Shown here one piece after another: positions 29,391 to 54,313 of a stretch of 64,000 bases of DNA. The notes beneath the pieces are model-generated. The model was not told where the DNA came from. It searched no databases and saw nothing but the letters and a program-made list of their open reading frames with translations. The position numbers and the translations under genes are program-made. The DNA is taken from NCBI GenBank assembly GCA_963740355.1, contig CAVUDW010000002.1, positions 1,056,001 through 1,120,000 on the forward strand. Direction: 5' to 3'. Position 1 is the stretch's first letter. Each line of letters starts with the position of its first letter. This DNA is from an uncultured Gemmatimonadaceae bacterium (lineage in GTDB: Bacteria > Gemmatimonadota > Gemmatimonadetes > Gemmatimonadales > Gemmatimonadaceae).

Positions 29391-30158
29391 ATGTTCCCGA
29401 TCGGCGACGAAAACCCGACCGACAATCGTCCGGTCATGACCTGGACGATTCTTGGGCTGATGGTCGCGTCCTGGCTCTTCGTGCAGGGCGGGGGGGCCGA
29501 CGGCACGTCGCTGATCAAGAGCGTCTGCGAGCTGGGCCTCGTGCCCGGTGAAGTGACGCACATGGCGCCCGTTGGGCAGGCCGTGCCGATGGGCTCGGGC
29601 TGGGCCTGCCTCGTGGACCGGTCCGCGGTCAACTGGTTCACCCCGCTCACATCCATGTTTCTGCATGGCGGGTGGGGACACCTGCTGGGCAACGCCCTTT
29701 TCCTGTGGGTGTTCGGAGACAATGTCGAGGACCTGATGGGCCCGCGGCGGTTCCTGTCGTTCTATCTCGTCTGCGGCCTCGCGGCAGCGGCGTTGCACGT
29801 GGCGCTCTCGCCGGCCTCGCCTATCCCCACCGTCGGTGCTTCAGGCGCGATCTCCGGCGTGATGGGCGGCTATCTGGTGCTCTTTCCGCGGCACCGAGTG
29901 CGGATGTTTTTCCCGCCGATCTTCTTTTTCCATTTCCCGGCCTGGCTGGTGCTGCTCTGGTGGTTCGCCCTCCAGGTGCTGGCCGGGCTGCCGCAGCTGA
30001 CGATGCTGCACGCGGATCCGTCGGGCGGCGTGGCCGTGTGGGCGCACGTGGGCGGATTCGTCGCCGGTGTGCTGCTGGTGCGTCGGTTTGCCCTGCCAGA
30101 TCGCCTCGAGCGACGGCTGGCTCGACAGCTCTCAGGTAGTGTCCGCGCCTACATGTAA
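29391..30158 (+). CDS. Rhomboid family intramembrane serine protease
   Basis: [39 protein letters not shown] (Ser), WAHVGGF (His). Confidence 0.92.
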
Positions 30159-30190
30159 CGGTCCCGTGTCGATTTCATGTAACGGCGCAC
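30152..30190 (+). promoter_or_regulatory. PHO-box-like direct repeats upstream of DUF47-pit-ppk1
   Basis: catgtaacgg twice (30152, 30176); GTAAC/GTGTC/GTAAC at 30155, 30166, 30179; TGTAACGGCG identical to 45551-45560. Confidence 0.55.
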
Positions 30191-30268
30191 TCGGCTTCTA
30201 GTTTTCCTCATGTAGTCCGTGCCGGCGATGACTTGCTGGCACCCCACCAAATCTGGAGCTCCTCCTCC

Positions 30269-30880
30269 GTGCGTCTGATTCCCCGGGACGATCGATTCTT
30301 CGATCTCTTCGCCGAAATGGCCGGCATTCTCGTCCAGTCGGCCAATACACTGCAGCAGCTGTTCGCCGATCCGTCGCGTCTGGACGAGTTCCAGACCAAC
30401 ATCAAGAATCTCGAACACCAGGCTGACCGGCTCACCGCCGAGGCGAATCGCAAGGTCGACACGACCTTCGTGACGCCGCTCGATCGCGAAGACATCCACG
30501 CCCTCGTGACGCGCCTCGACAACGTGGTGGACCTGATCGACGGCTGTGCGCGGCGCGCGCAGATCTACCGCATCACCGAAGCGCGCGACCCGGCCATTCG
30601 CATGTGCTCCGTGCTCGGAGAAGCCTGTGTGCAGATCCGCGAGGCCGTGGCGTCGATGAAGAAGCCGCAGATGGTGTATGAGCATGGCGTGCGCATCAAG
30701 CGCCTCGAGGAACAGGCCGACGCGATCTATCACGAGACGCTCGGCAACCTCTTCGCCGGGTCGCCGGATCCGCTGACGGTGATGAAGTGGAAGGACCTGT
30801 ACGACTCGCTGGAGACCTCGATCGATGAGTGCCATTATGTGTCGCTGGCGCTCGAGAGTATCTCGCTCAAGAACAGCTGA
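30269..30880 (+). CDS. DUF47 / PhoU-like phosphate transport regulator
   Basis: RLIPRDDRFFDLF, LEHQAD, FVTPLDREDI, LEEQAD, MKWKDLY; directly upstream of a Pit gene. Confidence 0.9.
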   Translation: MRLIPRDDRFFDLFAEMAGILVQSANTLQQLFADPSRLDEFQTNIKNLEHQADRLTAEANRKVDTTFVTPLDREDIHALVTRLDNVVDLIDGCARRAQIYRITEARDPAIRMCSVLGEACVQIREAVASMKKPQMVYEHGVRIKRLEEQADAIYHETLGNLFAGSPDPLTVMKWKDLYDSLETSIDECHYVSLALESISLKNS

Positions 30881-30886
30881 GTTGCC

Positions 30887-31945
30887 GTGATTGCGTACGT
30901 CATAGGAATCGTGGTGGTCGCGCTGGTCTTCGACTTCATCAACGGTTTCCACGATTCGGCCAACTCGATCGCCACGATTGTCGGCACGCGCGTCCTGACG
31001 CCGTTCAAGGCCGTGTTGTGGGCGGCGACGTTCAACTTCGCGGCGCTCTTCACGGTGGGCACGGCCGTCGCGAAGGCGATCAGCTCGGGGTATGTCGACC
31101 AGTCGGCGATTTCGGCCAACGTGATCGCCGCTGCATTGCTGGGCGCGATCATCTGGAACCTGATCACCTGGTGGTTCGGCATTCCGTCCAGCTCATCCCA
31201 CGCGCTGATCGGCGGCTTTGCCGGCGCCGCGGTGGCGAGCAAGGGATTCGGGGCCCTCAACTGGGGCCCGAAATGGATCGAGACGCTGACGGCCATTGCG
31301 GTGTCACCGGCGCTCGGTGCGCTGCTCGGCATGACGCTGATGGTGATCGTCTACCGGGTGTTTGCGAAGGTGACGCCTGGCAAGGTGGATCGGTTCTTTC
31401 GACCGGCGCAGCTGGCCAGTTCGGCGCTGCTGTCGCTGGCCCACGGTGGCAATGACGCGCAGAAGACGATGGGGATCATCGTCGGCCTGCTCGCCTCGCC
31501 GTCGGTTCGCAAGCTGTTCGAGCCGTACACCACGGGTGCGCTGAGCTACATGTACGTGCCGGACACATCGACGATCCCGCTCTGGGTGGAAATCCTGGCG
31601 TACTTCGCGATTTCGCTCGGGACACTCTTCGGCGGTTGGCGCATCGTGCATACCATGGGCACGCGGATCACGAAACTCCGTCCGGTGGGTGGATTCTGCG
31701 CTGAGACCGGTGGTGCGATCGTCATCTTGATGGCGTCGAAGTTCGGCATCCCGGTGAGCACCACGCACACGATCACCGGCTCGATCGTGGGCGTCGGGGC
31801 GGCGAACCGAGTGCGAGCCGTCCGCTGGGGCCTGGCGGGCAACATCGTATGGGCGTGGATCGTCACGATTCCGGCGGCAGGGCTGCTGGCGGCGCTCAGT
31901 GCGCTCATCTTGAATGCAATCGTGGTGGTCGGCCGTCCCGGCTGA
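30887..31945 (+). CDS. pit: Inorganic phosphate transporter (PiT family)
   Basis: NGFHDSANSIAT, PSSSSHALIGG, HGGNDAQK, PVSTTH. Confidence 0.93.
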   Translation: MIAYVIGIVVVALVFDFINGFHDSANSIATIVGTRVLTPFKAVLWAATFNFAALFTVGTAVAKAISSGYVDQSAISANVIAAALLGAIIWNLITWWFGIPSSSSHALIGGFAGAAVASKGFGALNWGPKWIETLTAIAVSPALGALLGMTLMVIVYRVFAKVTPGKVDRFFRPAQLASSALLSLAHGGNDAQKTMGIIVGLLASPSVRKLFEPYTTGALSYMYVPDTSTIPLWVEILAYFAISLGTLFGGWRIVHTMGTRITKLRPVGGFCAETGGAIVILMASKFGIPVSTTHTITGSIVGVGAANRVRAVRWGLAGNIVWAWIVTIPAAGLLAALSALILNAIVVVGRPG

Positions 31946-32001
31946 CCATCAGGAGAAAGGCGGCTGCCAACCGGGCGGCCGCCTGAACCTGTGGGGAGAC
32001 G

Positions 32002-34155
32002 ATGGCGACACGACGGAAGAAGGCGCGAAGCGGCGGTGATGCCGATGCCGATGCCATGGGCTCGGTTGGTGCTGCCGGTGAAGCGCACCTGTTCTTCAGT
32101 CGTGAGTTGAGCTGGCTGGAGTTCAACGCAAGGGTGCTCAACGAGGCGCGTGACCCGCGGACGCCGCTGCTCGAACGGCTCAAGTTCCTCGCCATCTTCA
32201 GCTCGAACCTCGACGAGTTCTACATGGTCCGCGTGGGCGGACTGCGTCGCAAGGTGAAGAACGGGCAGAGCGGGTACCCGCAGGAGCGCCTCTCGCCGGC
32301 CGAATTGCTGCTGGCGATCGAGAAGCGGGTCGGTGAACTGCTGCGGTTGCAGCGGAATTGCCTGACCGATGACCTGCTGCCGGCGCTCGAGTCGCGTGGC
32401 GTGAAGCTGGTGCGCATGGATGACCTCACGCCGGCCGAGTGGCTGGTGGTCGACGCGTTCTTCGAGTCGCAGGTGTTCCCGGTCCTGACCCCACTCGCGG
32501 TCGATCCCGGGCATCCGTTCCCCTACATCTCGAACCTGTCGCTGTCGCTCGCGGTCCGCGTGCGTGATCCGCAAACAGGCGCGGAGCATTTCGCGCGCGT
32601 GAAGGTCCCCAAGTCGCTCGCGCGCTGGGTACCAGCTGGTCGCCCGGGGTTGTTCGTGCCGATCGAGGACGTGATCGGCGTCAATCTCGGCGCGCTCTTT
32701 CCCGGCATGGAAGTGCTGAGCTGGCATGCATTCCGGATCACCCGCTTCTCCGATTTCGAGCTCACCGGCGTGGAGGAGGACGACGACCTGTTGTCGGTCG
32801 TCGAGCGCCAGGTGTTCGAGCGCAAGTTCGGCGAGGTGGTGCGTCTCGAGGTGCAGACGGGCATGCCGGAAGAGTTGCGCACGCTGCTGATGGAGGAACT
32901 GCGCGATGAAGAAGATGCGCTGATCGTCGCGTTGCCACTCACCGAACGTGACGTCGACGAGCCGGGGACGCTGCTCGATCTCGGTGACCTGATGTCGCTG
33001 TCGGCCGCCATCGACCTTCCCGACGAACGCTTCGCGGCCTTCACGCCCGCAATTCCGGCCGAGTTGGCGGATGCCGTGAATATTTTCGACGCCATTCGCG
33101 ATCGTGACATCCTCGTGCATCATCCGTTCGAGAGCTTTCGCGAGACCGTCGAACATTTCATCGAACGCGCGGCGCTGGATGAACAGGTGCTCGCCATCAA
33201 GCTCACGCTGTATCGCACGTCGGGCGAGACGGCCATCGTCCGGTCACTGATCGAGGCGGCAGAGCGGGGCAAGCAGGTGGTGGTGCTGATCGAGTTGCAG
33301 GCCCGTTTCGACGAAGCGAACAACATCGCCTGGGCACGCACGCTCGAGAATTACGGCGTGCATGTCGTGTACGGCGTGCCGGGGCTGAAGACGCATACGA
33401 AGACCGCCCTCGTCGTCCGCCGCGAGCCGGACGGCATCCGACGGTATGTGCACATCGGTACCGGCAACTATCACTCCCGCACGGCGAAGCTCTACACCGA
33501 CATCGGACTGTTCACGTGCAGCCCGAGCATCGGCGCCGATGTCAGTGACCTGTTCAACGCACTGACGGGGTTCAGTCGTCAGCAGCTGTATCGCAAGTTG
33601 CTGGTGGCGCCAGCCAACATGCGCCGTCGCTTCGTGGAATTGATCGACCGCGAAGCGGAGCATGCTCGCGCGGGTCGAGAAGGGCGGATCATCGCCAAGA
33701 TGAACGCACTGGTCGATCCGGATGCAATCCTCGCGCTGTATCGTGCCTCGGCTGCCGGCGCCAGGATCGACCTGATCGTGCGCGGCGTCTGTTGCCTTCG
33801 CAGTGGCATGCCGGGCGTGAGCGAGAACATCACGGTGCGGAGCCTCATCGGCCGATTCCTCGAGCACTCGCGCATCTTCTTCTTCGGCAACGCGGGCGAG
33901 CCGGAGTACTACCTTGGCTCGGCCGACTGGATGCCGCGCAACTTCGATCGCCGAGTGGAAACCGTTGCGCCGATCGAGGATCCGGTGCTGCACGCACGGC
34001 TCGAGTCGCTGCTGCGCACCTGCCTCGAGGACAACCGGCAGGCGTGGATGCTGCAGACGGATGGCACCTATGTGCAGCGCATGCCGGCACCGGGTGAGCC
34101 CGAGCGTGCCACGCACGCGATCCTGCTGAAGGACGCCTGGGCGACGTCGCAGTAG
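32002..34155 (+). CDS. ppk1: Polyphosphate kinase 1
   Basis: RELSWLEFNARVL, SNLDEFYMVRV, HPFPYISN, HHPFESF, LYRT, ARFDE, KTHTK, GTGNY, GRFLEHSR, SADWMPRN. Confidence 0.97.
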   Translation: MATRRKKARSGGDADADAMGSVGAAGEAHLFFSRELSWLEFNARVLNEARDPRTPLLERLKFLAIFSSNLDEFYMVRVGGLRRKVKNGQSGYPQERLSPAELLLAIEKRVGELLRLQRNCLTDDLLPALESRGVKLVRMDDLTPAEWLVVDAFFESQVFPVLTPLAVDPGHPFPYISNLSLSLAVRVRDPQTGAEHFARVKVPKSLARWVPAGRPGLFVPIEDVIGVNLGALFPGMEVLSWHAFRITRFSDFELTGVEEDDDLLSVVERQVFERKFGEVVRLEVQTGMPEELRTLLMEELRDEEDALIVALPLTERDVDEPGTLLDLGDLMSLSAAIDLPDERFAAFTPAIPAELADAVNIFDAIRDRDILVHHPFESFRETVEHFIERAALDEQVLAIKLTLYRTSGETAIVRSLIEAAERGKQVVVLIELQARFDEANNIAWARTLENYGVHVVYGVPGLKTHTKTALVVRREPDGIRRYVHIGTGNYHSRTAKLYTDIGLFTCSPSIGADVSDLFNALTGFSRQQLYRKLLVAPANMRRRFVELIDREAEHARAGREGRIIAKMNALVDPDAILALYRASAAGARIDLIVRGVCCLRSGMPGVSENITVRSLIGRFLEHSRIFFFGNAGEPEYYLGSADWMPRNFDRRVETVAPIEDPVLHARLESLLRTCLEDNRQAWMLQTDGTYVQRMPAPGEPERATHAILLKDAWATSQ

Positions 34156-34171
34156 CGGCCCCAGACGTCGA

Positions 34172-35556
34172 TCATTTCCCCTCGAAGGTCTTTCGTTTCA
34201 CCAGCGTCGTGTCGCCGGCATAGATGAACCGGATGTTCTTCATGTAGGTCGCTGCTGCGCGACGAATCGAACTGCTCGACACGACGCGCATCCTGCGCGG
34301 GACGTTGTCCGACAGGTGGTAGTCCCCCTGCAGGATCTCGGCATGCGCGAGCGCGTCGGCCTGCACGCCACTCGTCGACCGTCGAAAGAGGAAGGTGAGC
34401 GAGTTCTTGTCCGACGTGAACGAGAACCCCGCCGGCATCGAGTCGGGGTCCGTCAGCTTGCGGATCTGTGCCTTCACCAGCTGCACCACCGTGTCGGGCT
34501 TGCCAGTGGAGACGTAGATCACGCCCGTGACGATGGCGCGATCGTACACGCTGGCAGAGGCTGCGTAGCTCAGCCCCCGCTTCTCGCGCACCGCGTCACT
34601 GATCATGCCACCGAGGAACGATGTGGCGGCGCTGAACGATGGAAAGTCGTCACTCGTTTCGGGGGGACCATCGAAGACCCCGATCACGTAGTTCGTGGCG
34701 CTGCTGCGCGGCAGCATCGTCACGGAGCCAGTGTGGGCCGATACAGGTGACGGCGGCGTCCACTTGTAGCTGCCAACCGGCACGTCATGCAGTGTGCGCT
34801 TCACGGCTGCCTCGACCATCGCACGCGTGGCGGCGCCGACCACCACGACCAGCATGCGCGATCGCACCACCTGCTCGCGCACATATCTGGCCAGCATGGC
34901 AGAGTCGATCTTCGCGAGGCTGACCTCCGTGCCGGAGGGCGACAGGCCATACGCGTGCCCCGAAAATGCCACGCTGTCGGAGATCGAGCCGATCTCCCCA
35001 TCCGGGCTGCCGCGCTGCTGTCGCAGGGCACCGATCAATCGTTGGCGTGCAGTATTCACACCTTCCGATGGAAACTGTGGCTGTGTGAGCCGCTCGGTCA
35101 TCAGGTTCCACGACTCGTCGAACTCCGACTGCACGCTGCGAAAGCCCAGCATCGTCCAGTCGCTGGTGTATTCGACGGCCAGCGCACTGCCCGTCATCGC
35201 CCACGCCGTGCGGAGCGTGGTGTCGGGATGGCTGCGCGTGCCGTACTTCGACGCGGTCAGCAGCAGCGCCTCGATGCCTTGCGTTGCCGGCGTCAACTGC
35301 CGTGAGCCACCCAGCAAGTACACGTTCGCCGCAACGACTTCGGTCGATGGCGTGATGCGCTGGATCACGCGGACGCTGTCCACCGTGTACGAGACGAGAT
35401 TGCTGTCGTCGGCACCTGACAAGGCAGAGGCAGCGGCAGCGGCAGAGGCGCAGCGGGTGCCCCACCGGTCGTACTGCGCGTGGATGCCGGAGCGAACGGG
35501 CCGGCGAAGATCGCGGAGAGCGCCGACAACGCGATGGCGTGATGGAGTCTGATCAT
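34172..35556 (-). CDS. M16 peptidase non-catalytic subunit, frameshifted near the 5' end (about 35450-35500)
   Basis: Body has REKRGLSY (R/Y pair) and no HxxEH. The signal peptide MIRLHHAIALSALSAIFAG starts at ATG 35556 in a different frame; span is 3n+2. Confidence 0.75.
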
Positions 35557-36954
35557 GGCTTCATGAAGGCGACGTACTGCGCGACAGTCGTTCCCACTTT
35601 CTGCTCCGTGCCGACGGGGGTCAGCACCCCGATCACGTACGGCCGATTGACGATCCACTTTTGCGCGAATGCCGCCAGCGACTGGGGCGTGGAACGTCTT
35701 GCCGGTGTCCGGGCCCGACATCCGCTCGAGACGGCCGAGGGCCCAGGCGCCGCCGAGCGTCGAGGCGAGGGACGCCGTCTCCTCGAAGGTCAGAGCCAGG
35801 CCGACACGATCACGCCGTGCGTCAGCCTTCAGCGCCGACTCTTCGTAGTAGCCGTCATTGCCGACCTGCCCGAGCACGGTGCCAAGGGCGTTGAGTGCAT
35901 TGCTCAACTGCTCCAGCGTCGTCGTGCCGGTGAAGCGCAACTCGCCACTGTGCCGGTTGAGGTCCGACGACATGTAGGCGGAGGTGAAGAAGCCACCATC
36001 GACGAGGGTGCGCTGAAATGGCGATTCGTCGGCACCGAGCAGGTCGGTGAAGGTCGCGGCATCACGCGTGTCGGTCGAATCACGCGACAGGCTCGGGCCG
36101 CGCCAGCTGATCTGCACTGTGACCGTCTGCACTTCGTGCGTGTAGACGAATGCAAACGTGGAATCCATCGGCGGTGGGGCTGGTACTGGGTCCGCCTTCA
36201 ACGGATCGGCCGCACGGCGCCACCGACCGAACTCCTTGCGTGCCGCGCTGAACACCTTTTCCGCGTCGACGTCGCCTGTGATCACCAGCGCCGCGTTGTT
36301 CGGCACATACCATTTCTGATAAAAGGCTTTCAACTGCACCGCGTTCGCAGTGAACAGTGACAGGTCATTCCCAATGGTGTTCTTGCGAGGATACCAGTCG
36401 CCCCAGAGTGCCCGAGTGGACGCGTCATTCAGCAGGTAGGACGGCTGCGACTGGGCACGCTGCATCTCATTGCGCACCACGAACCGCTCCGTCTGCAGGT
36501 CCTTGTCCTTGAAGAACGGGTCGCGCACGAGGTCGGCCATCAGGCTCACGTTCCGGCCCATCTCCTCCGAGGGAAACCAGAGGGTGTACGACACACTTTC
36601 GTCACTGGTGGCGCCGTTGTAGCTCGCCTTCGAGAGCGAGGCGTCGCGGCCGAACGAGCCGTCCTCGCTCCCCTGGTAGCTCTTGAAGAGCATGTGCTCG
36701 AAGAGGTGCGGAATCCCCTGCAACTCGGGCGTCTGGGTCATCGCCCCACCGCGGAAGACCACGTGCGCGGTGGCGAGGGGTACCGCGTGGTTCTCCACCA
36801 CGATCACCGTCAGGCCGTTTGGTAGCGTATCGCGCCGCACCACCTGGTCGGGACGCGTACCTGTTTGCCCTGCCAGCATCGCGGCAGCGTAGAGCGAGGA
36901 CAGCGCCGCCAACGCGTAGCGGCGTACCGGCAGTCCAAGGAACGTTTGTAACAC
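35553..36954 (-). CDS. M16 zinc peptidase catalytic subunit, frameshifted near 35700
   Basis: LPNGL, GIPHLFEHMLF (HxxEH), NGATS, ERFVVRNE, WYVPNNA. The natural C-terminus (...AFAQKWIVNRPYVIGVLTP...FMKP*) is in another frame, ending at TGA 35553; span is 3n+1. Confidence 0.8.
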
Positions 36955-37062
36955 CGTGAACCCTCTCGAAAGCGTCGAGTGCACTGCTCGCTGTCGAGTG
37001 TATCATCACGAGACTAATCAGGGAAGAGCCCGCCAGCGGCCTCGCCGTGGCCCCTCGCGGCG

Positions 37063-38800
37063 TCAGTCCACCGAATCGGTCGCTTCCCACTCCACCGGCT
37101 TGCCGTCGGGACCGATCACGTGCACCGGAAAGTCGATCAACTTCTCGAGCAGGTCGCTCTTCCGGCTCGCGCCCCAGAGCTCGAGGCGCGTCGATCGGGC
37201 GCGCGGATCGGGCACAGGCGTGATGCGGAGCGCCCGTTCCGTCCACCGCACCTTCAGTTGCTGCACCGCGCCGACATGCCCGCGATCGAAGCCATCCGCC
37301 ACGCGCAGGATCGCCGCCAGTCGTCGCACGCGCTGCTGCTGATCTTTCGTCAACTCGGCAAATGTCGGATGCTTCAACTTTGGCGGTGAGCCGCGATGGT
37401 AGCGCGCGACATTCGCCATCACCACCTGTTCCTCCGGTGAGACGCCGAGCAGGTCGGCGTGCACGATGAGGTGATAGGAGTGTTTGTGGTGCGAGTTGTA
37501 GCTGATGTGATAGCCAGTGTCGTGCAGCAACGCCGCATCGCGTAGCGTGTCGCGATCTTCCGGTGCACACCCGATCCGTGTGCCGATCGCATCGAAGAGT
37601 TGCAGGGCCAGCTTCTGCACGTGCTGGGCGTGCATCTCCTCGTACTGCGTGCGCTCGGCGAATGCCTGCACACTCCGGCGCCGTCCCTCGCCCGGATCGG
37701 TCGCCTGCGGCGTCACCTCGGCCGCCTCGAGCAGCAGGCCTTCACGAATGCCGTATGCCGACACGTGGAATTCGCGGATGTCGAGAAATGCCATCACTTC
37801 GGCGGCGACGGCCATGCCGGCCACGATGATGTCAGCCCGCCCCGGATTGAGCCCGGGTACGGTGAGCCGCTCTGACGGCGACAACTCGATCAGCTGGTCC
37901 AGCAGGTGCTCGAGTTCACCGCGGCTGACGACCTTGCCGTGCACCGTGCGCGCCGTGCCCACAGCGCTGCTGCTGCAGCAACATCCCGGCAACGTTGGTG
38001 AACGTGCCGCCGGACCCGATCATGCCAGCGCCACGCCATTCCTTGACCGCAAATCGCTCGCGAATCTCCTCACGCAGCGCCTTGCGAAGCTTCGAGACGG
38101 TTCCGCGGCGGATGCCCTTCCGCAGGTACGTCTCGGTGGCGCGGATCGCACCGAACGGCATCGACAGCAGTCGCTCGACCAGTCCGTCGGCCGAGAGTGC
38201 GAGTTCCACCGAGCCACCACCGATGTCACAGGTGACCATGCGCCCGTGGCCGACATCGAAATGCGCCTGTGCGCTGCGGAAGGAGAGCCGCGCCTCGTCC
38301 TCGCCGGAAATGACGCGCACCGTGAGTCCGGCGGCCTTCTTCACCTGTCGAACGAAGGCTGCGCCGTCGGCGGCGTCGCGGACCGCACTGGTCGCCACAC
38401 ATTCAATGCGCTCGGCACCGAGCTGCTTGGCCAGCGTCACCATCCGCTGCAGCGCCTCGATCGCGGCCAGCGCACTTTCGACCGACAGGTGCCCCGTTTC
38501 GTCGACACCGGTGCTGAGGCGCGGTGCCGCCTTCATCTCATCGACCGTGCGGATCTGTCCCGTGCTGCTGACATCCGCCACGATGGCACGAATGGAGTTC
38601 GAGCCGATGTCGATTGCCGCGATGCGTCGTGGCCGCTCGGCGCCGCCCTTGATCGCCTCGTTGGAGAGCGGCGTGGCGCCCCGCGCGCGGGTTGCAGGGA
38701 TCGCGGGAAGCGGTGCGGCGGGCGTCTTGCGGCGGGGCGACCGTTCAGGCATGCGATGCGGGGCAGGGGAGTGTGGCTCGGCGGAAGTTACCGGTACCAC
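37063..38800 (-). CDS. ppx: Exopolyphosphatase Ppx/GppA with HD domain, frameshifted near 37965
   Basis: 5' ORF has AAIDIGSNSIR, ATSAVRDA, ISGEDEA, DIGGGSVE, GSGGT. 3' ORF has RADIIVAG, GIREG, ALLHDTG, HHKHSY, ARYHR, LRVAD. The frames overlap around 37916-37992. Confidence 0.88.
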
Positions 38801-38851
38801 TCGGCGATGCTAGCCAAGCCGGGCCACAAACACCTGCGTCATGCGTCCCTC

Positions 38852-45425: not shown

Positions 45426-45516
45426 ATGGATTCGCGAATCGATTCGGGGTGATCGCGTGGGCCAGGTACCGTCGCCCACTGCGTGCCGTAGCACGCACCG
45501 TTACGTTCGCGTTCCC

Positions 45517-45569: not shown

Positions 45570-45586
45570 CGGGCTGTCGCCGTCCG

Positions 45587-47302: not shown

Positions 47303-47340
47303 GGGCGGAAGCTAGCGCGCAGCCAGTCGTGCCTGGTGCC

Positions 47341-48057
47341 TTACCGGGTCGAGGCTCCGCGCATCCGGTAGCCGAAGCCGCGCACCGTCTCGATCAGGTC
47401 TCCGGCGTCGCCAAGCTTCGTCCGCAGCCGCTGGATGTGCATGTCCACCGTGCGCGTCTGGATGTCGGGCGCGGCTTCCCACACCGTCTCCAGCAGGTGA
47501 CCGCGCGCCTGTACGCGACCTCGGCGTTCAGCGAGGGTGATCAGCAGCTTGTATTCGGTCGGCGTGAGCTCGACCTCATCGTTCTCGATGGCGACGCGAT
47601 GCGCCGCGCGATCGATGCGGATCGGCCCGATCTGGAGCAGGTCGGCCGGCGCCTCGGTGGCACCCGTGGTCCGGCGGAGAATCGCGCCGACTCGGAGCAC
47701 CAGTTCCTGTGGACTGAACGGCTTGGTGAGGTAGTCATCGGCACCGAGCGACAGGCCGCGAATGCGATCCTGCTCTTCCTTGCGGGCGGTCAACATCAGC
47801 ACGGCGATGTGACGCGTGCCTTCCTCAGCGCGAATGTGCTCGAGTACGTCGAAGCCGCTCATGCCAGGGAGCATGAGATCCAGCACCAGCAACGACGGCC
47901 GTTCCTGCCGCGCGATCGAGAGGGCATCGGTGCCGTTCGAGGCGGTGGACACGCGGTAGTTCGTCTTCGCCAGGTGGTAGGCGACGAGGGCGACGATGTC
48001 CGGCTCGTCGTCGACGACCAGGATCCGTTCCTGCACATGCTGCACGGGGCTGGTCAT
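47341..48057 (-). CDS. phoB: OmpR/PhoB family response regulator (PhoB-like)
   Basis: ILVVDDE, LDLMLPGMSG, MLTA, GADDYLTKPFS, RTVDMHIQRLRTKL, IETVRGFGY; adjacent to phoR within a phosphate cluster. Confidence 0.85.
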   Translation of the reverse strand: MTSPVQHVQERILVVDDEPDIVALVAYHLAKTNYRVSTASNGTDALSIARQERPSLLVLDLMLPGMSGFDVLEHIRAEEGTRHIAVLMLTARKEEQDRIRGLSLGADDYLTKPFSPQELVLRVGAILRRTTGATEAPADLLQIGPIRIDRAAHRVAIENDEVELTPTEYKLLITLAERRGRVQARGHLLETVWEAAPDIQTRTVDMHIQRLRTKLGDAGDLIETVRGFGYRMRGASTR

Positions 48058-48767
48058 GCCGTGTGCCCTTCGCGGATCGCAGGATGCGACCCGGTGGGCG
48101 TGAGACGACGTTCGTCCGCCACCATCGGAATGTGCGGTGCGCCGTTGGTGGCCAGCCGCTGCCTGATCTTCGCCAGAATCATTTCAATCGCCACTGTGTT
48201 ATGGCCACCGCGCGGGACGATGACATCCGCCCAGCGCTTGCTTGGTTCGATGAACTGCAGGTGCATCGGTCGCACCGTATTGACGTACTGCTCGAGAATT
48301 TCCTCCAGCGGCCGGCCGCGGGATGCCATGTCGCGCCGGATCCGCCGCACCAGCCGGATGTCCGCATCCGCGTCCACGAACACCTTCACGTCCAACCGCT
48401 GCCGCACCCGTTCGTCGGTGAACAGCAGGATGCCATCCACCACCACCACATCGACCTTGGCCACCCGCACCGTCTCGGCGCTGCGCGCGTGGATGGTGTA
48501 GTCGTAGATCGGCTTCTCGATTGGCTCGCCCCGCGACATGGCGTCGAGGTGTGAGACGAAGAGATCGATGTCGAACGCGTCCGGATGGTCCCAGTTGATG
48601 TGATGCAGCTCCCGCATGGACAACCCGGAGTGATTCCGGTAGTACGAGTCCATTTCCACGAACGCGACGGAGGAATCGGCCAGGGCGGCCGCGACCCGAC
48701 GGGCGACGGTGGTCTTGCCGGATCCGGTACCTCCGGCAATTCCGATCATCAGCGGGCGGTTCGGCAC
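48054..48767 (-). CDS. udk: Uridine kinase
   Basis: IGIAGGTGSGKTT, DSYY, NWDHPDAFD, RRIRRD...RGR, VRPMHLQFIEPSKRWAD; GGAGG RBS; ATGA overlap with phoB. Confidence 0.93.
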   Translation of the reverse strand: MPNRPLMIGIAGGTGSGKTTVARRVAAALADSSVAFVEMDSYYRNHSGLSMRELHHINWDHPDAFDIDLFVSHLDAMSRGEPIEKPIYDYTIHARSAETVRVAKVDVVVVDGILLFTDERVRQRLDVKVFVDADADIRLVRRIRRDMASRGRPLEEILEQYVNTVRPMHLQFIEPSKRWADVIVPRGGHNTVAIEMILAKIRQRLATNGAPHIPMVADERRLTPTGSHPAIREGHTA

Positions 48768-48779
48768 TGCACCTCCATC

Positions 48780-48836
48780 GTCACGAATACATGGTGATTC
48801 GTGACTGTGTTGTAATTCGTGATGATTCGGTCACGA
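48780..48836. promoter_or_regulatory. Operator-like repeat array in the divergent udk-phoB / nucleotidase promoter
   Basis: Perfect inverted repeat gtcacgaat-N8-attcgtgac (48780-48805), a further attcgtga at 48815 and tcacga at 48831; GTGAC/GTAAT (48801/48812) and GTGAT/GTCAC (48819/48830) are 11 bp apart. Confidence 0.6.
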
Positions 48837-48943
48837 CTCCGTATCGACGCACCGGGAGCGGTGGCGATCCTGCGGCAATCTACCCGGGGAAGGCCGGGCC
48901 CGGTCCGCTGCCGGGGGACGACCGGCTCCGCTAGCTTCCCTCC

Positions 48944-51900
48944 ATGAAACTCATGCCATCGCACTGTCGGCGGCTCGTGACGCTGACGGCGCATTTGTTT
49001 GTGGCGGGGGCACTGGCGGCACAGCCGAGTCCCGCGACCCGCTCCCTGGTCGTGGTCGCCACGACCGACGTCCACGGCCGCCTCCGCGGCTGGGACTACT
49101 ACGACGGCCGCGCCGACAGCGCGCGCAGCCTCGCCGCCGCGGCCACCATCGTGGACTCGATCCGCGCCGCCCATCCCGGGGACGTCCTCCTGGTGGACGC
49201 CGGGGACCTGCTGCAGGGCAACCCGATGATGACGGTGGCCGCCAAAGCCACGGCGGCAAGGGTTCACCCCGTGATCGCGGCCATGAATGTGATGGCCTAT
49301 GACGCGGCAGCCGTGGGCAACCACGAGTTCAACTACGGCCTGCCCCTGCTCAAGCGCGCCATCGCACAGGCGCGATTCCCGTTCCTGTCGGCCAACGCGG
49401 TCGCGGCCCGGCCATCGGACGCATTCCCCCGGTTTACGCTCGTCCGTCGCGGGAATGTGACGGTCGGGATCGTGGGTGCGACCACGCCGGGCGTGATGGT
49501 CTGGGACCGTGACAATGTCCGGGGACGGATCCGATACACCGATATCGTCGCGTCCCTCAAGCGTGCGGCGGCCGATGCCCGGCGTGCCGGCGCCGACATC
49601 GTGGTGGCTGTGGTCCACGCCGGACTCGATGGCCAGGCCACCTATGACACGGTCGCAACGGGGTTGCCGAGCGAAAACGTGGTCAATCGGATCCCGCGCG
49701 AAGTCCCGGGCATCGACCTCGTGGTCTACGGACACTCGCATCGCGAGATGATCGACACGCTCATCAACGGTGTACGGCTGATGCAACCGCGCAACTACGC
49801 GGCGACGGTGGCGGTTGCCACCCTCAACCTGACCCGCGACGGGGGCAAGTGGTCCGTCGCCTCGTCCACCGGTGCGTCGGTGAAGGTGGCCCGCCACGCC
49901 GAATCGGCGGCGGTCCTTCGCGTCACGGAGGAGGCGCACCGGAAAGCGCTGGCGTACGTGGCCGAGTCCCTGGCCGTGACACGTGTTGCCTGGCGGGCCG
50001 ACCAGGCGCGCGCAGTCGACATGCCGATCACCGATCTTGTGGGCGAGGTGATGCGACGCGAGTCCGGGGCGCAGTTGGCTGCTGCGCCGGTCTTCTCGCT
50101 CGACGCACAGCTCGATAGCGGCACCATCACCGTCGCGGCGATCGCCAAGATCTATCCGTACGAAAACACTCTTCGCGCCGTGCGCATCAGCGGGGCACAG
50201 CTGCGCGCCTATCTGGAGCACAGCGCGAAGTACTGGAAGACATGGATCCGTGGCACCACGGCGTCGCTGGTCAACACCACGATCCCGGGATTCAACAACG
50301 ACATCGTCGTCGGCGCCGACTATGAAGTCGACCTCTCGAAGCCAGTCGGACGACGGATCTCGACGCTCGCGGTCGGTGGCACGCCGGTGCGTGACTCCGA
50401 TTCCTTCACCATCGCCCTCAGCAACTATCGCCAGACCGGAGGCGGCGGCTACGCGATGATCGCGAATGCCCCATTGGTCTACGAATCCAAGGGTGACATT
50501 CGCGAGATGATCGTCGAGGCCGTGCGGAAGGCGGGAAAGCTCGACCCGGCGGACTGGGCGCGCGTCAACTGGCGCATCGTACCTGAAGGCGCTGCGGTGG
50601 TGGCGCGTGCGTCACAACGGGGCGGTGCCGGTGATCGCGACGCGCGCGCCACGACTTTCGCCGGTCCGCGACTGCGTGTCATCGGTCTCAACGATTTCCA
50701 TGGCGCGTTCGAATCCCGCATCGGGGCCCGCAGCCAGCCGTTTGGTGGCGCCGGTGCACTGATCGCAGCGATCCGGCGTGCGCAGGCCGAGTGTGCACCG
50801 CCGAGCTGTTACTCGGTGCTGGTTGATGGCGGCGATGAGTTTCAGGGCACACCGGCCTCGAACCTCGCTTTCGGGCGCACCGTGGTGACGCTGTTCGATT
50901 CACTTGGACTGACAGCCGCAGCACTCGGCAATCATGAGTTCGACTACGGCCAGGACACCCTGCGCGCGCGCATCCGCCAGGCATCGTATCCCGTGCTCTC
51001 GGCCAACCTGCGCGATACCCTCGGCAACATCCCCGCCTGGATCAGGCAGGACACGATCGTCACGCGCGGTCCCTTCCAGGTTGGCATCATAGGCATCAGC
51101 ACCATCGAGACGCCGAAGACCACTCGTGCGATCAACGTCACCGACCTGCGATTCATCGATCCTGCCCCGGTCGTGAGCGAGCGGGCCAAGGCACTGCGCG
51201 CGCGAGGGGCGAACGTGATCGTCGTCACCGGCCATGTCGGCGGATTCTGCAACAATGGCGTGTGCGAAGGCGAGATCTTCGACATGGTGAACCGGCTCAC
51301 GTCGCCGGTGGATGTCGTCGTCAGCGGACACTCGCACAGCTACATCAACACGCGCCTTCGGGGCGTGCCGATCGTGCAGGCCCGGTCACGCGGTGAGGCG
51401 ATCGATGTGGTGGACCTGGCGGTTGGCGACACTACTGGGCATGCGACCGGCGACATCAACTTCTCGCGCGTGCTGACGGCGTCGGTACTCGATGTGATGG
51501 CCGATACCATCACCGCCGATCCGCAGGCCGCGCGCATCGCGAAGGCGGCGGTGGACGCGGTGGCGAGCATCATCGCCGAGCCGGTGGGCAAGATCAACAG
51601 CGACATGAAGCGCGATGGCTCGCAGTATGCGCTCGGCAACCTCGTGGCGGACGCGATGCGCGAGGCCGCGAGGAGTGACATCGCCGTCATGAACAACGGC
51701 GGCATTCGCGCCAATCTGCTGGCCGGCGACGTGAACTTCGGCCGCCTCTACGAAGTGCAGCCGTTCGGCAATACGCTCTACACCCTCAAGGTACGGGGCG
51801 CCGACCTGCGAGCGTACCTGTCGCGGTTGGTCGCAGGCAATTCTCCACGTGCCCATCTCAGTGGTGTTGCGCTGCGCTGGGATCCGGCGCGGCCGGCCGA

Positions 51901-52138
51901 TGACCGCATCGTCGAGGTCACCGTCGCTGGAAAGGCGATCGATGCCAGGCGGATCTACACCATCACACTCAATGACTTCATGGTCACGGGCGGTGATGGG
52001 CTGGGACTGGCCGGTGTCGCGCTCGAGACACGTGCCACCAACATCGTCGATCTCGACGCGCTCGTGTCGTACGTTCGTGCCCGCCCGCAGGGAGTGGTTG
52101 CTCCCGCTGTTGATCGCATCGTGTCAGTCACTCCATGA
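48944..52138 (+). CDS. Exported tandem nucleotidase: CpdB-like 2',3'-cyclic phosphodiesterase/3'-nucleotidase fused to a UshA-like 5'-nucleotidase
   Basis: Two complete metallophosphoesterase motif sets (TTDVHG, DAGDLLQGNP, GNHEFNYG, GHSH; LNDFHG, DGGDEFQGT, GNHEFDYG, GHSH), each followed by a nucleotidase C-domain (YPYENTL/NYRQTGGGGY; NNGGIR/QPFGN/GGDG); signal peptide. Confidence 0.9.
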   Translation: MKLMPSHCRRLVTLTAHLFVAGALAAQPSPATRSLVVVATTDVHGRLRGWDYYDGRADSARSLAAAATIVDSIRAAHPGDVLLVDAGDLLQGNPMMTVAAKATAARVHPVIAAMNVMAYDAAAVGNHEFNYGLPLLKRAIAQARFPFLSANAVAARPSDAFPRFTLVRRGNVTVGIVGATTPGVMVWDRDNVRGRIRYTDIVASLKRAAADARRAGADIVVAVVHAGLDGQATYDTVATGLPSENVVNRIPREVPGIDLVVYGHSHREMIDTLINGVRLMQPRNYAATVAVATLNLTRDGGKWSVASSTGASVKVARHAESAAVLRVTEEAHRKALAYVAESLAVTRVAWRADQARAVDMPITDLVGEVMRRESGAQLAAAPVFSLDAQLDSGTITVAAIAKIYPYENTLRAVRISGAQLRAYLEHSAKYWKTWIRGTTASLVNTTIPGFNNDIVVGADYEVDLSKPVGRRISTLAVGGTPVRDSDSFTIALSNYRQTGGGGYAMIANAPLVYESKGDIREMIVEAVRKAGKLDPADWARVNWRIVPEGAAVVARASQRGGAGDRDARATTFAGPRLRVIGLNDFHGAFESRIGARSQPFGGAGALIAAIRRAQAECAPPSCYSVLVDGGDEFQGTPASNLAFGRTVVTLFDSLGLTAAALGNHEFDYGQDTLRARIRQASYPVLSANLRDTLGNIPAWIRQDTIVTRGPFQVGIIGISTIETPKTTRAINVTDLRFIDPAPVVSERAKALRARGANVIVVTGHVGGFCNNGVCEGEIFDMVNRLTSPVDVVVSGHSHSYINTRLRGVPIVQARSRGEAIDVVDLAVGDTTGHATGDINFSRVLTASVLDVMADTITADPQAARIAKAAVDAVASIIAEPVGKINSDMKRDGSQYALGNLVADAMREAARSDIAVMNNGGIRANLLAGDVNFGRLYEVQPFGNTLYTLKVRGADLRAYLSRLVAGNSPRAHLSGVALRWDPARPADDRIVEVTVAGKAIDARRIYTITLNDFMVTGGDGLGLAGVALETRATNIVDLDALVSYVRARPQGVVAPAVDRIVSVTP

Positions 52139-52374
52139 CCATGTCTACCGTTCGTGTGTTCGTGAATGCCCGCGGGCATGATGTCCCGCCTGGCGCCTCG
52201 GCGCTCGATGCCGTGCGCATCGCCGACGCAGCCGAAGCCGATGGCGTGACCGCCGGTACCCGCCAGATCACCGACAGCCGCGGCATCGCGGTGCAGCCCG
52301 AGACACCGGTGTATGGCGGTGTGATCTATCGCACCGTTGCCAACCGTGAACGCGACCCCGGGAGCACGTCGTGA
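52135..52374 (+). CDS. Small hypothetical protein, possibly beta-grasp fold
   Basis: 79 aa with 4-nt overlaps on both sides; VRVFVNARGHDVPPGASALDAV resembles 2Fe-2S/ThiS-like N-termini but there is no Cys. Confidence 0.65.
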   Translation: MTMSTVRVFVNARGHDVPPGASALDAVRIADAAEADGVTAGTRQITDSRGIAVQPETPVYGGVIYRTVANRERDPGSTS

Positions 52375-53426
52375 GCCCGAGTCTGGTGGCGTCGGATCGG
52401 TCGCTGCTGCGGCGATTGCCGAAGGCGGAACTGCACTGCCATCTCGACGGTTCGGTGCGGCCGGAGACGATGATCGAGCTGGCGAAGGAGTACAAGGTCG
52501 CCATGCCACGCGACGACGCCGATGCCTTGCGCGAGTACATGCGTGTGGACGATGCGCGAAATCTCGAGGATTACCTGCTGCGCTTCGACACCACGCTGTC
52601 GGTGATGCAGACGGAAGAAGCGCTCGAGCGCATCGCCTACGAACTGGCGATCGACGTCGCGGCCGAAGGCGTTCGCTACATCGAGATGCGCTACGCACCG
52701 CCGCTCAACACGTTGCAGGGGATGACGCTCGCACAGGCCGTGGAGGCGCCACTGCGTGGCATCGCCAAGGCGCAGAAGGAAGCCGACATCACCGCCCGCG
52801 TCATCGTCTGCAGCCTGCGGCACTACGATCCGGAACTGTCACTGCAGCTGGCCAAGCTGGCTGTCGGCTACAAGGATCGTGGCGTGGTCGGCTTCGATCT
52901 CGCCGGCGGCGAAATCGGCAACCCGGCGTCACGGCACGCGGCGGCGTTTGCCTACTGCGAGGAACATGGCCTGGCCTGCACCTGTCACGCTGGTGAGGGT
53001 GACGGTCCGGATTCGATCCGGCAGGCGGTGCACGATTGTCACGCACATCGCATCGGGCACGCCACACGACTGCTGGAAGACGTGACGTTGCTCGAGGAAG
53101 TCCACGAACGTGGCATCGCACTCGAACTCTGCCTCACCAGCAACGTGCAAACGCGCGCCACCGAACGGTACGAGACCCACCCGTTGAAGCAGTTCCTTGC
53201 GCGCGGCATGAACGTCTGCCTCAATACCGATAATCGCCTCATGTCCGCCACCACCCTCGTCGACGAGTACCATCACGCGGCCGTGAGTTGCGATTGCACG
53301 TTCGATGAACTGGCAGGGATGGCGCTCGATGGATTCCGCAGCAGTTTCCTTCCGGACGCGGAGAAGGTGGCGATGGTGTCGCGCATGGAGCGTGAGATCG
53401 AGGCAATCCGCACGGGGCAGGGATGA
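52371..53426 (+). CDS. add: Adenosine deaminase
   Basis: LPKAELHCHLDGS, GFDLAGGE, HAGE, RIGH, ELCLTSN, NTDN. Confidence 0.93.
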   Translation: MSPSLVASDRSLLRRLPKAELHCHLDGSVRPETMIELAKEYKVAMPRDDADALREYMRVDDARNLEDYLLRFDTTLSVMQTEEALERIAYELAIDVAAEGVRYIEMRYAPPLNTLQGMTLAQAVEAPLRGIAKAQKEADITARVIVCSLRHYDPELSLQLAKLAVGYKDRGVVGFDLAGGEIGNPASRHAAAFAYCEEHGLACTCHAGEGDGPDSIRQAVHDCHAHRIGHATRLLEDVTLLEEVHERGIALELCLTSNVQTRATERYETHPLKQFLARGMNVCLNTDNRLMSATTLVDEYHHAAVSCDCTFDELAGMALDGFRSSFLPDAEKVAMVSRMEREIEAIRTGQG

Positions 53427-54313
53427 GCACAGGTCACGTCCAGTCGGGCGACGAGTGGGAACCGGTGTCGGAAGCCGAGCTGCAGGAGCACTATGGCGCC
53501 GATGCAGCCGCGGTCGCGGCTGGTGTCGTGCGCGCGAGAGCGGGCCGGCCGTTGCCGACGCCGGTGGCGGCGATCGTGCTCGGATCGGGGCTGGGGGGGC
53601 TCGCTGAGCAGATCGATGATGCGGTGCGCATCCCCTTTCACGACGTTCCGGGATTTCCACCGGCAACCGTGGAAGGGCATGCCGGCGCGCTGATCATCGG
53701 AACGCTGGCCGGCAAGCCGGTCATCTGCCTCGCCGGCCGCTTTCACTTGTATGAGGCGCATCCCGCTGCGGTGGCGGTATTTCCGGTTCGGCTGGCGCAC
53801 GCCCTCGGCGCAGAGACACTGATCGTCTCGAATGCCGCGGGTGGTATCCGGCGGACATTCATGCCCGGCACGCTGATGCGGATCGAGGATCACATCAACC
53901 TGATGAATCGACATCCGCTGGCGGGTCCATCACAGCCGGGTGAGCCACGTTTTCCCGACATGTCGGCGCCGTATGATCGGGCGCTCGGTGCGAGTCTCGA
54001 TGCGACCGCGCGCACCATGGGCCTGCGGCTCGATGTGGGCGTCTACTGCGGTCTGCTCGGCCCGACGTACGAAACGCCAGCCGAAGTACGGATGCTGGAG
54101 AAACTCGGTGCTGACGCGGTCGGGATGAGCACCGTCCCTGAAGTGATCATGGCGCGCACGCTCGGCATGCGGTGCGTTGGTGTGAGCCTGATCACCAATG
54201 CCGCAGCGGGCTACACCGCCAACCTGCTGAACCACGCCGAAGTCCTGCACGAATCGAAGGACGCAGCCGGTCGATTCCAGTCCCTCATTTCCAGCTTCGT
54301 CGCAACGCTCTGA
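53423..54313 (+). CDS. punA: Purine nucleoside phosphorylase (trimeric type)
   Basis: VLGSGLGG, TVEGHAG, GRFHLYE, SNAAGG, GPTYETPAE, DAVGMSTVPE, LITN, HAEV. Confidence 0.92.
   Translation: MSTGHVQSGDEWEPVSEAELQEHYGADAAAVAAGVVRARAGRPLPTPVAAIVLGSGLGGLAEQIDDAVRIPFHDVPGFPPATVEGHAGALIIGTLAGKPVICLAGRFHLYEAHPAAVAVFPVRLAHALGAETLIVSNAAGGIRRTFMPGTLMRIEDHINLMNRHPLAGPSQPGEPRFPDMSAPYDRALGASLDATARTMGLRLDVGVYCGLLGPTYETPAEVRMLEKLGADAVGMSTVPEVIMARTLGMRCVGVSLITNAAAGYTANLLNHAEVLHESKDAAGRFQSLISSFVATL

Follow-up and report, generated by a model that had tools for sequence, protein, structure and literature searches.

The region from 30152 to 54313 of the window (the whole stretch of DNA analyzed here, 64 kb, 65% G+C) is probably a core Pho locus, which is composed of separable modules around phoB-phoR (phoBR) and in which PhoB-controlled units lie beside a divergent nucleotide-salvage operon. 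The window belongs to contig C2 of the genome of a soil or sediment Gemmatimonadaceae bacterium (5.45 Mb, 5 contigs, 94.5% complete), and the nearest public loci and the protein names are those of metagenome-assembled genomes of Gemmatimonadaceae or Gemmatimonadales. A preliminary description, made from the sequence alone, had read the region as one pathway, in which a receptor and a lipoprotein import nucleotides that are then dephosphorylated and salvaged. Its gene list was borne out: every gene was found to be present by Pfam and NCBIfam profile searches of the window proteins. As for the single pathway, the Pho locus, the conserved link to phoBR, and the fit of udk and NupC to salvage stood, while the role given to the receptor did not.

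The center of the locus consists of the following genes.
45587-47302, minus strand: PhoR-like sensor kinase with HAMP, HisKA and HATPase domains (Pfam)
47341-48057, minus strand: PhoB-like response regulator (TIGR02154)
48054-48767, minus strand: Udk uridine kinase, the first gene of udk-phoB-phoR (NF004018, 284 bits against a cut-off of 180)
48944-52138, plus strand: exported tandem nucleotidase of 1064 aa (Pfam, NCBIfam)
52135-52374, plus strand: conserved 79-aa open reading frame (orf79) between the nucleotidase gene and add
52371-53426, plus strand: Add adenosine deaminase (TIGR01430, 318 bits against a cut-off of 216.6)
53423-54313, plus strand: PunA purine nucleoside phosphorylase of the PunA/DeoD-II type (NF006054, 334.5 bits against a cut-off of 218)
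Overlaps of 4 nt are found between udk and phoB, between the nucleotidase gene and orf79, between orf79 and add, and between add and punA.

The positional relationship between phoBR and the nucleotidase operon was examined in two sets of loci. One consists of approximately 30 kb around the nucleotidase gene in ten relatives, which were picked for full-length matches on long contigs; these span three families, and the nucleotidase identity ranges from 37 to 89%. The other consists of related Gemmatimonadota loci, 14 of which have an upstream flank of at least 2.5 kb. The phoB-phoR pair was found to be divergent from the nucleotidase gene in all ten relatives and in 11 of the 14 further loci; phoBR lies within 8 kb in one of the remaining three and is absent from the other two, which are the most distant loci. 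Add and PunA are encoded downstream of the nucleotidase in all ten relatives and in 15 further loci. Outside the phylum, phoBR, add and punA were not found nearby in any of 62 loci, all of which carry single-domain nucleotidase homologues. The linkage of the nucleotidase operon to phoBR, whose loss had been named beforehand as a refutation, is thus conserved across the order. In the sister-family genomes G025 and G035, a gene for a nucleoside transporter of the CNT/NupC type is located between add and punA, which fits a route from periplasmic dephosphorylation through nucleoside uptake to salvage. The udk gene occupies this place in all 12 loci of the window's genus (hereafter, the genus) and in G022, L033, L034, L041 and L068; it was not found there in families f2 and f3 and is seen at this place only within Gemmatimonadaceae. 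The pit, DUF47 and ppk1 genes adjoin the locus only within the genus.

The nucleotidase consists of two modules, each carrying a metallophosphatase domain and a 5'-nucleotidase C domain (Pfam). The N half is CpdB-like (approximately residues 30-560) and the C half is UshA-like (approximately 575-1060); in NCBIfam, the CpdB model covers residues 21-548, and the UshA and YfkN C-part models cover residues 577-1047. Among solved relatives, the N half is nearest to CpdB and YfkN-N (3gve), and the C half to the Thermus 5'-nucleotidase and UshA. The metal-binding residues D42, H44, D85, D88, H127, H225, H264 and H266 of the N half and the residues D584, D628, D631 and H664 of the C half are invariant in eight aligned orthologues; the GH-x-H motif of the C half was read from the translation, as was the N-terminus, which has a signal peptide and no lipobox. 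The tandem nucleotidase was found in 38 of the 41 genomes of the order sample, and full-length tandem matches were confined to Gemmatimonadota. In four genomes of the genus (G002, G005, G012 and G019), the match ends at approximately residue 565 in an open reading frame of 586-588 aa; either the CpdB-like half alone is encoded there or the fusion is split.

The other units of the locus that are preceded by repeat arrays comprise the following genes.
30233-30880, plus strand: DUF47 (PhoU_div), the usual Pit partner (PF01865, E 3e-21)
30887-31945, plus strand: Pit phosphate transporter of the PHO4 family (PF01384, E 2e-97)
32002-34155, plus strand: Ppk1, polyphosphate kinase 1, with all four PP_kinase domains; ppk1 adjoins pit in all three of the genus relatives fetched
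38852-39910, minus strand: PstS phosphate-binding lipoprotein (TIGR00975, 310 bits against a cut-off of 205)
39910-40581, minus strand: small lipoprotein of no named family (lipobox in the translation)
40655-42373, minus strand: lipoprotein of the surface type with an fn3 domain and a pectate-lyase-like beta helix (PF28492; Pfam, lipobox)
42666-45425, minus strand: TonB-dependent receptor with CarboxypepD_reg, Plug and OMP_b-brl_3 domains and a signal peptide (Pfam)

Repeat arrays had been noted in four promoters, and all four are real. They were located by reading the intergenic DNA of the four regions; an automated repeat search over the whole span gave only chance-like pairs within genes.
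30152-30185, no strand: Pho-box-like site before DUF47-pit, with two CATGTAACGG copies 24 bp apart
42464-42483, minus strand: Pho-box-like direct repeat GTGAC-N6-GTGAC (in the gene orientation), 12.3 bits
45500-45603, no strand: the densest array, with six GTNAC units, in the receptor promoter
48779-48847, no strand: control region between udk and the nucleotidase gene, with phased GATAC, GTGAC and ATCAC units 11 bp apart, reading towards udk
The repeat units are GTNAC (GTCAC, GTGAC, GTAAC and GTTAC) with 11-bp phasing, and the consensus is approximately CCGTKACA-N4-CGTGACA. In sister families, the same 11-bp phased direct repeat is found just downstream of phoR, upstream of the Porin_O_P-pstS operon. 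For scoring, we used a 20-column matrix trained on 12 of these sites, which lie just after the phoR stop codon; they come from other genera, none from the window's genus.

The arrays are conserved in the genus to different extents. In front of DUF47-pit, a minus-strand matrix match of 13.3 bits covers 30153-30172. G016 and G014 keep the first repeat copy together with the block beside it, and G009 keeps them in part; a block is conserved here in three of the four genus genomes. The site lies approximately 30-45 nt upstream of a conserved -10-like element of the TAGTTT type. The repeat at 42464-42483 is approximately 90 nt upstream of the lipoprotein start and is kept in 4/4 genus genomes, with one spacer base changed in G009. 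The receptor array contains two inverted sites, one at 45539-45558 (minus strand, 22.9 bits) and another at 45584-45603 (plus strand, 21.5 bits, overlapping the phoR stop), which are the first and third best matrix matches in the 5.45-Mb genome. GTTAC-N6-GTTGC and its mirror GTCAC-N6-GTAAC before the receptor gene are kept in 4/4 genus genomes (including G016, G009 and G014), and four GT[AT]AC units occur here within 87 nt, as compared with at most three per 110 nt elsewhere in the genome. In the udk-nucleotidase control region, two more units (GTCAC and GTGAC) are located nearer udk, minus-strand matrix matches lie at 48828 (12.7 bits) and 48817 (10.8 bits), and the five units are each kept in 11-12 of the 12 genus loci. 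Altogether, the four control regions contain six matrix matches of at least 10.8 bits in approximately 620 nt, where approximately 0.03 are expected from the genome rate of 0.046 per kb.

Since the training sites and the receptor-promoter sites share their position downstream of phoR, an unlinked test was sought at pst operons. Eight genus relatives carry a separately located pstS-pstC-pstA-pstB-pstB operon, and upstream sequence is present for seven of them. In all seven, the matrix gives forward matches of 14.2-20.0 bits, either directly before the first gene or at its called start; the genome-wide rate of matches of at least 14 bits is 0.0073 per kb. No PhoB target in bacteria is known to be more conserved than the pst operon, and the GTNAC motif is therefore read as a candidate Pho box of this lineage. 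The predicted Pho control of the receptor gene, the lipoprotein-pstS unit, DUF47-pit and udk-phoBR is well supported in silico.

The arrays could instead be operators of a regulator other than PhoB, for example, a dimeric repressor that recognizes inverted GTCAC...GTGAC pairs. Inverted repeats are indeed seen, as two 15-nt arms at approximately 45550-45600 and as pairs in 48780-48805 and 48817-48840, and the half-site GTNAC is self-complementary, so that its strand orientation is unreadable from the core. However, the best-conserved arrangement is the 11-bp phased direct repeat, and the same motif stands at the pst promoters in 7/7 cases, upstream of Porin_O_P-pstS in the sister families, and before phoBR itself. 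We regard a non-PhoB operator as very improbable, and the candidate Pho box is retained below.

Beyond the four promoters, the GTNAC clusters and top matrix matches are mostly adjacent to non-phosphorus genes (an AraC-type regulator, TerB, DAP epimerase, Lon, RecJ, DUF188 and a hybrid kinase); the suggestive neighbors are limited to two further CarboxypepD_reg barrels and a PLD-like protein. Tallies by coding or non-coding position are approximate, as they come from a rough GC3-based gene caller, which missed a rhomboid gene and both lipoprotein genes. The second Porin_O_P gene has no upstream match of at least 8 bits. Three further sites were observed. One is a 16.2-bit Pho-box-like site at 59342, approximately 30-50 nt before a small lipoprotein gene (59342-59862 region), which is 5 kb beyond the span and encodes approximately 155 aa with no family match. 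Another is at 878-920 of locus L143 (G000:C2, approximately 1603611-1603653), where four phased CGTKRN units with matrix matches of 10.8 and 11.7 bits precede, by approximately 150 nt, a gene that matches the PhoX family weakly (38 bits) and may be a further member of the Pho regulon. The last is L125 (G000:C3:1355681-1355735), in which five GTNAC units are found between divergent genes for a CarboxypepD_reg outer-membrane barrel and a PLD-like protein.

The region shared by udk and the nucleotidase gene also contains elements that may serve in transcription initiation.
48875-48943: back-to-back -10-like elements, TAGATT at 48878-48883 (to udk) and TAGCTT at 48932-48937 (to the nucleotidase gene)
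Both element blocks are kept in 12/12 genus loci, and we take the two elements to be putative promoters. TAGCTT ends 6 nt before the nucleotidase ATG, a position that suggests a leaderless nucleotidase transcript. Similar TAG-N-TT elements precede start codons in G022, G035 and G040. Within the window, TAG-N-TT or TAACTT elements are also seen shortly before start codons at 48932-48946, 30199-30205 and 38830-38840, and no sigma-70 consensus promoter was found in 30000-49999 (0 found, 2.3 expected); a non-canonical -10 element and some leaderless transcripts are suggested. Separately, an RNA element in the udk leader was considered and rejected: RNAalifold gave two hairpins for the 12 genus sequences, with a covariation term of +0.22 kcal/mol and 2 of 13 pairs doubly changed.

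The naming of PhoB and PhoR needs a comment. PhoB scores 249.6 bits against TIGR02154, for which the cut-off is 296.2, and is the best of the 84 matches in the genome. The best NCBIfam models for PhoR are PnpS, WalK and PhoR, all of which score below their cut-offs. In the sister families, the phoBR pair is followed by Porin_O_P, pstS and pstB, and this context favors the PhoB/PhoR naming.

Several observations weigh against the interpretation of the region as a core Pho locus with a Pho-linked salvage operon. PhoB and PhoR are both under the curated NCBIfam cut-offs. The best non-coding matrix matches beyond the locus adjoin genes for DUF188, RecJ and a hybrid kinase, with no evident phosphorus link, and PhoD is without a box (no upstream match of at least 8 bits). 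No NupC-family match was found in the window's genome. In the shared 176-nt region, the boxes face udk-phoBR and lie 85-150 nt from the nucleotidase -10-like element; a nucleotidase-oriented match of at least 9 bits was found in 1 of 24 loci (G025), a udk/phoB-oriented one in 7, and none in 16. Should TAGATT be the udk promoter, the array would stand downstream of it, a position that fits repression better than activation. Finally, a small ArsR-type gene, recognized as such by reading its open reading frame, is found between phoB and the nucleotidase gene in G035, G037 and G031, with a palindromic AT-rich element before it; a regulator of the ArsR type, other than PhoB, may control the nucleotidase operon in those relatives.

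Some of these observations would be explained if nucleotidase-add-punA were a purine catabolic operon, serving carbon, nitrogen or salvage and responding to signals of its own (nucleosides or an ArsR-type regulator), with its position beside phoBR being inherited gene order. The lack of a nucleotidase-oriented box in 23 of the 24 loci and the ArsR-type gene in the phoB-nucleotidase gap of three relatives agree with this explanation. It also agrees with the chemistry of PunA, which consumes inorganic phosphate (Pi) and does not release it, and with E. coli ushA, which is reported in the available text of PMC4714964 as not phosphate-regulated. However, the pairing was kept across three families down to 37% identity, while pit, ppk1, the receptor gene and the M16 genes vary, and this difference argues for selection on the pairing. 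In addition, udk, a gene of nucleoside salvage, is inside the phoBR operon and downstream of the boxes. Moreover, two related exported nucleotidases are reported to respond to phosphate elsewhere: Bacillus subtilis yfkN is reported to be induced by phosphorus starvation (PMC4744853), and Corynebacterium ushA to be under the phosphate-starvation regulatory system (PMC4714964). A purine catabolic operon of this kind is unlikely on balance, though it keeps an appreciable share of the probability. Returning to the core Pho locus, the PhoB control that had been suggested for the whole region is supported by the matrix for the promoters of the receptor, lipoprotein, DUF47-pit and udk-phoBR units, but no nucleotidase-oriented match of at least 9 bits was found in the region between udk and the nucleotidase gene here. 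Considering that the pairing is conserved, that udk belongs to the phoBR operon, and that yfkN and Corynebacterium ushA set precedents, the chance of Pho control of the nucleotidase operon is judged to be a little better than even.

The receptor and the lipoproteins form a module that is separable from the nucleotidase operon. The receptor scores 229 bits against TIGR01782 (cut-off 310). The family of the beta-helix lipoprotein has more than 7000 matches and is common in Gemmatimonadota and Bacteroidota; PF28492 is found on the window protein and on 120/120 relatives among the matches listed, and the Atlas clusters agree with this assignment. When solved structures were compared by sequence, only the fn3 domain of the lipoprotein was matched. 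The small lipoprotein has no Pfam or NCBIfam match, and its nearest Atlas clusters are unnamed Gemmatimonadota lipoproteins; it is located beside the beta-helix lipoprotein in G016, G009, G014, G031, L033, L043 and L045. A SusCD-type locus was tried as an identity for the module and rejected: the SusC model TIGR04056 gives 34.5 bits against a cut-off of 368, and the lipoprotein is composed of fn3 and a beta helix, not SusD. As a separate observation, the beta-helix lipoprotein carries invariant acidic/His clusters, such as GLDDSFEFFGG, GDDHFD and ENDGC, in 20 relatives; these resemble a site for metal binding or catalysis more than a surface that only binds passively.

The receptor and beta-helix lipoprotein genes were found near the nucleotidase gene in 5 of the 10 fetched relatives and in 4 of the 14 further loci. 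In genomes without the module, phoR is followed by a gene of the phosphate-selective porin family and then by pstS; the receptor module stands in the place of the sister families' phosphate-selective porin. A similar arrangement has already been described in another phylum. In Flavobacterium johnsoniae, the available part of PMC8115612 describes a cluster, 'PUSIV', consisting of OprP (Fjoh_0542), PhoR (0543), PhoB (0544), a receptor (0545) and lipoprotein FII (0546); the receptor and lipoprotein are strongly induced by Pi depletion, several hundred-fold, while OprP, PhoR and PhoB are not. Fjoh_0545 has the same Pfam set as the window receptor (PF07715, PF13715 and PF14905), and Fjoh_0546 is likewise a pectin-lyase-type beta-helix lipoprotein that follows the receptor, both being directly beside phoBR; this likeness is drawn from the domain set and the published description. 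The Gemmatimonad locus differs in that it adds the fn3 domain, the second small lipoprotein and the lipoprotein PstS and is without OprP, and the Flavobacterium cluster is described in the available part of PMC8115612 without a tandem nucleotidase, add or punA. The same source relates the Flavobacterium lipoproteins to ElpS of Caulobacter crescentus (CC0170), which, in the accessible part of PMC2996285, is a surface lipoprotein made under phosphate starvation only and encoded beside the receptor CC0171; its authors state that ElpS and CC0171 homologues co-occur across genomes. The link of the window lipoprotein to ElpS is drawn from that statement of PMC8115612 and from the shared fold family. 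The Caulobacter pair differs in that a protease dependent on type II secretion releases ElpS and CC0171 is reported to be constitutive (PMC2996285, as far as its available text goes). By analogy with these two systems, the receptor module appears to be the Gemmatimonadota counterpart of the phosphate-induced pairs and hence already described in kind.

The single pathway of the preliminary description, in which the receptor and the lipoprotein import nucleotides or oligonucleotides and the periplasmic nucleotidase dephosphorylates them, can be weighed against these data. In its favor, the receptor, lipoprotein and nucleotidase genes lie within 10 kb around phoBR in the genus and in G022, G031, L033, L043, L045 and L068, the receptor and lipoprotein promoters carry the motif of the udk-phoBR region, and oligonucleotides exceed the general porin size according to textbooks. 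On the other hand, no receptor module was found near the nucleotidase gene and phoBR in 5 of the 10 relatives and in 10 of the 14 further loci. Where the module does occur, it takes the position before pstS that the phosphate-selective porin has elsewhere, and no nuclease gene is seen in the span. The Flavobacterium and Caulobacter pairs stand in clusters that are described without such a nucleotidase in the available parts of PMC8115612 and PMC2996285, and in E. coli and Vibrio, mononucleotides need no dedicated receptor to reach the periplasmic enzymes UshA and CpdB (in part, PMC4714964). Thus, nucleotide import by the receptor found no support: the module is separable from the nucleotidase, replaces a porin, and matches a known Pi-induced pair. 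We consider the single pathway improbable; separable modules around phoBR are preferred.

The phosphate carriers of this genome raise a further point. PstS has a lipobox ending in C at residue 19 and is the only PstS match in the genome, and one base is shared by its start codon and the stop codon of the small lipoprotein gene. Pit is the sole PHO4-family match. In the genome, the best PstB match is 149 bits against a cut-off of 343, PhoU has no match, and no Na/Pi cotransporter was found; the absence of Pst and PhoU is likely rather than proven, 5.5% of the genome being unassembled. The locus holds all the phosphate carriers that are recognizable in this genome. Since no PstB or PhoU was found, PstS is without an ABC partner and stands as an orphan lipoprotein. 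Likewise, pstB was found in 8 of the 19 other genomes of the genus, as compared with all 15 other genera sampled. In this genome, the proposed uptake of Pi at the locus would thus go through Pit, with PstS lacking PstCAB. One speculative possibility is that high-affinity capture of phosphate at the outer membrane has passed to the receptor module: PstS and the beta-helix lipoprotein would feed phosphate or a small phosphorus compound to the TonB-powered gate, Pit would complete the uptake, and PhoR would sense without Pst-PhoU. With the salvage operon fixed to phoBR across the order, nucleotides would then be the organic phosphorus source for which the lineage is best equipped. This takeover is suggested by the module in the porin's place, by the PstS gene directly downstream and coupled, and by PstCAB and PhoU not being found in approximately half of the genus. 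We hold it to be rather unlikely as a whole.

The remaining features of the span are as follows.
34172-36984: two M16 peptidase genes inside the span
37063-38800, minus strand: Ppx/GppA exopolyphosphatase, split in two frames (Ppx-GppA profile)
40600-40639, minus strand: hairpin of 16 pairs with a T-rich tail, directly 3' of the beta-helix lipoprotein gene
42558-42590, minus strand: hairpin of 14 pairs with a T-rich tail, 3' of the receptor gene
The M16 gene pair is shared only with G016 among the relatives examined. The two ppx frames overlap at 37916-37992, with profile positions 3-196 in one open reading frame and positions 203-281 and domain III in the other; the frameshift is near 37962, and the gene is in a single frame in G016. 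A contig of a near relative (public run, low depth) is without one base at 37962, which would restore a single ppx frame; this is a hint only, from a check of two low-depth contigs, the second of which ends at 37961. Either the assembly is in error here or the strain carries a frameshift of its own. The stem of the 40600-40639 hairpin is kept and its loop is variable in 4/4 genus genomes, and this hairpin is read as a terminator or an attenuator; the 42558-42590 hairpin is probably the terminator of the receptor gene. The orf79 product has 146 relatives of 43-139 aa, none of which carries a Pfam domain among the 120 matches listed; every source name giving an organism is from Gemmatimonadota. 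There is no significant similarity between orf79 and the open reading frame at the same place in G025.

Taken together, the core Pho locus might work as follows. PhoB would bind the phased GTNAC units and control its own operon (udk-phoB-phoR), the unit of the TonB-dependent receptor, the unit of the beta-helix lipoprotein, the small lipoprotein and the lipoprotein PstS, and DUF47-pit, perhaps on into ppk1. The exported nucleotidase would hydrolyze 2',3'-cyclic, 3'- and 5'-nucleotides in the periplasm and free Pi, which would enter through Pit and be stored by Ppk1. The nucleosides would be taken up by NupC in the sister families and by another carrier here; Add and PunA would process purine nucleosides, and Udk pyrimidine nucleosides. 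The gene identities, the overlaps within operons, the conserved synteny, the conservation of the motif and its occurrence at pst promoters are observed; in this scheme, we infer the PhoB binding, the induction at low Pi (including that of the nucleotidase operon), the enzyme specificities and the cellular locations.

Gemmatimonadota are common in soils and sediments, and their phosphorus economy is known from gene inventories only; a survey, in its accessible part, gives pstSCAB and PhoR-PhoB as the main phosphate route of the phylum (PMC10581226). The individual parts of the present locus are known, and the value lies in their arrangement and in the leads that it offers. With a candidate Pho box for the order, Pho regulons could be predicted for hundreds of genomes of uncultured members. 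That phoBR is paired throughout the order with a fused 3'/5'-nucleotidase and salvage genes points to the nucleotides of dead biomass as a favored organic phosphorus source. The members of the genus that are without Pst and PhoU and keep PstS in the receptor operon bear on the cargo of the Pi-induced pairs and on sensing by PhoR without Pst. A literature search, in which subscription journals were not covered, gave no description of the order-wide pairing, the candidate Pho box or the Pst-less genomes. The preliminary description had held the whole to be undescribed as one locus; this applies to the pairing of phoBR with the nucleotidase and salvage genes but not to the receptor part.

Three known systems can be compared with the locus. 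One is the Pho box. The E. coli Pho box consists of two 7-bp direct repeats with a 4-bp spacer, giving an 11-bp period, and Streptomyces PhoP recognizes 11-nt direct-repeat units. The arrays described here are similarly 11-bp phased direct repeats, and as in E. coli, they are located before the pst operon and before phoBR itself. The difference is that the core here is GTNAC (mostly GTGAC, GTCAC and GTTAC), and some promoters have units in both orientations.

Another is YfkN of B. subtilis, a trifunctional enzyme (2',3'-cyclic-nucleotide phosphodiesterase, 2'(3')-nucleotidase and 5'-nucleotidase), which is also exported and consists of a CpdB-like half followed by a UshA-like half. However, the window protein scores 459 bits against NF006934, for which the cut-off is 1646, and 325 against a cut-off of 2554; further YfkN-type models give 282 to 353 bits against cut-offs of 2542 to 2801. 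It is also shorter (1064 aa as compared with profiles of 1174 to 1445 positions) and has no cell-wall anchor. The window nucleotidase is thus YfkN-like in its predicted architecture and below the score of curated YfkN orthologues, and the Gemmatimonadota tandem nucleotidase is probably a fusion independent of YfkN.

The last is Vibrio cholerae, for which the available text of PMC4714964 describes the use of nucleotides and extracellular DNA as a phosphorus source through Xds/Dns, periplasmic UshA and CpdB, NupC and Pst, with CpdB activity rising under Pi limitation. The two systems are alike in that periplasmic 5'- and 3'-nucleotidases free Pi and nucleosides enter through NupC (in the Gemmatimonad case, by prediction and with NupC in the sister families). 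They differ in that, as far as that source describes them, the Vibrio genes are scattered, the nucleotidases are separate, and ushA is thought not to be Pi-regulated (PMC4714964), whereas on the Gemmatimonad side both activities are fused, and the fused gene forms an operon with add and punA (and with nupC in the sister families) that is fixed beside phoBR.

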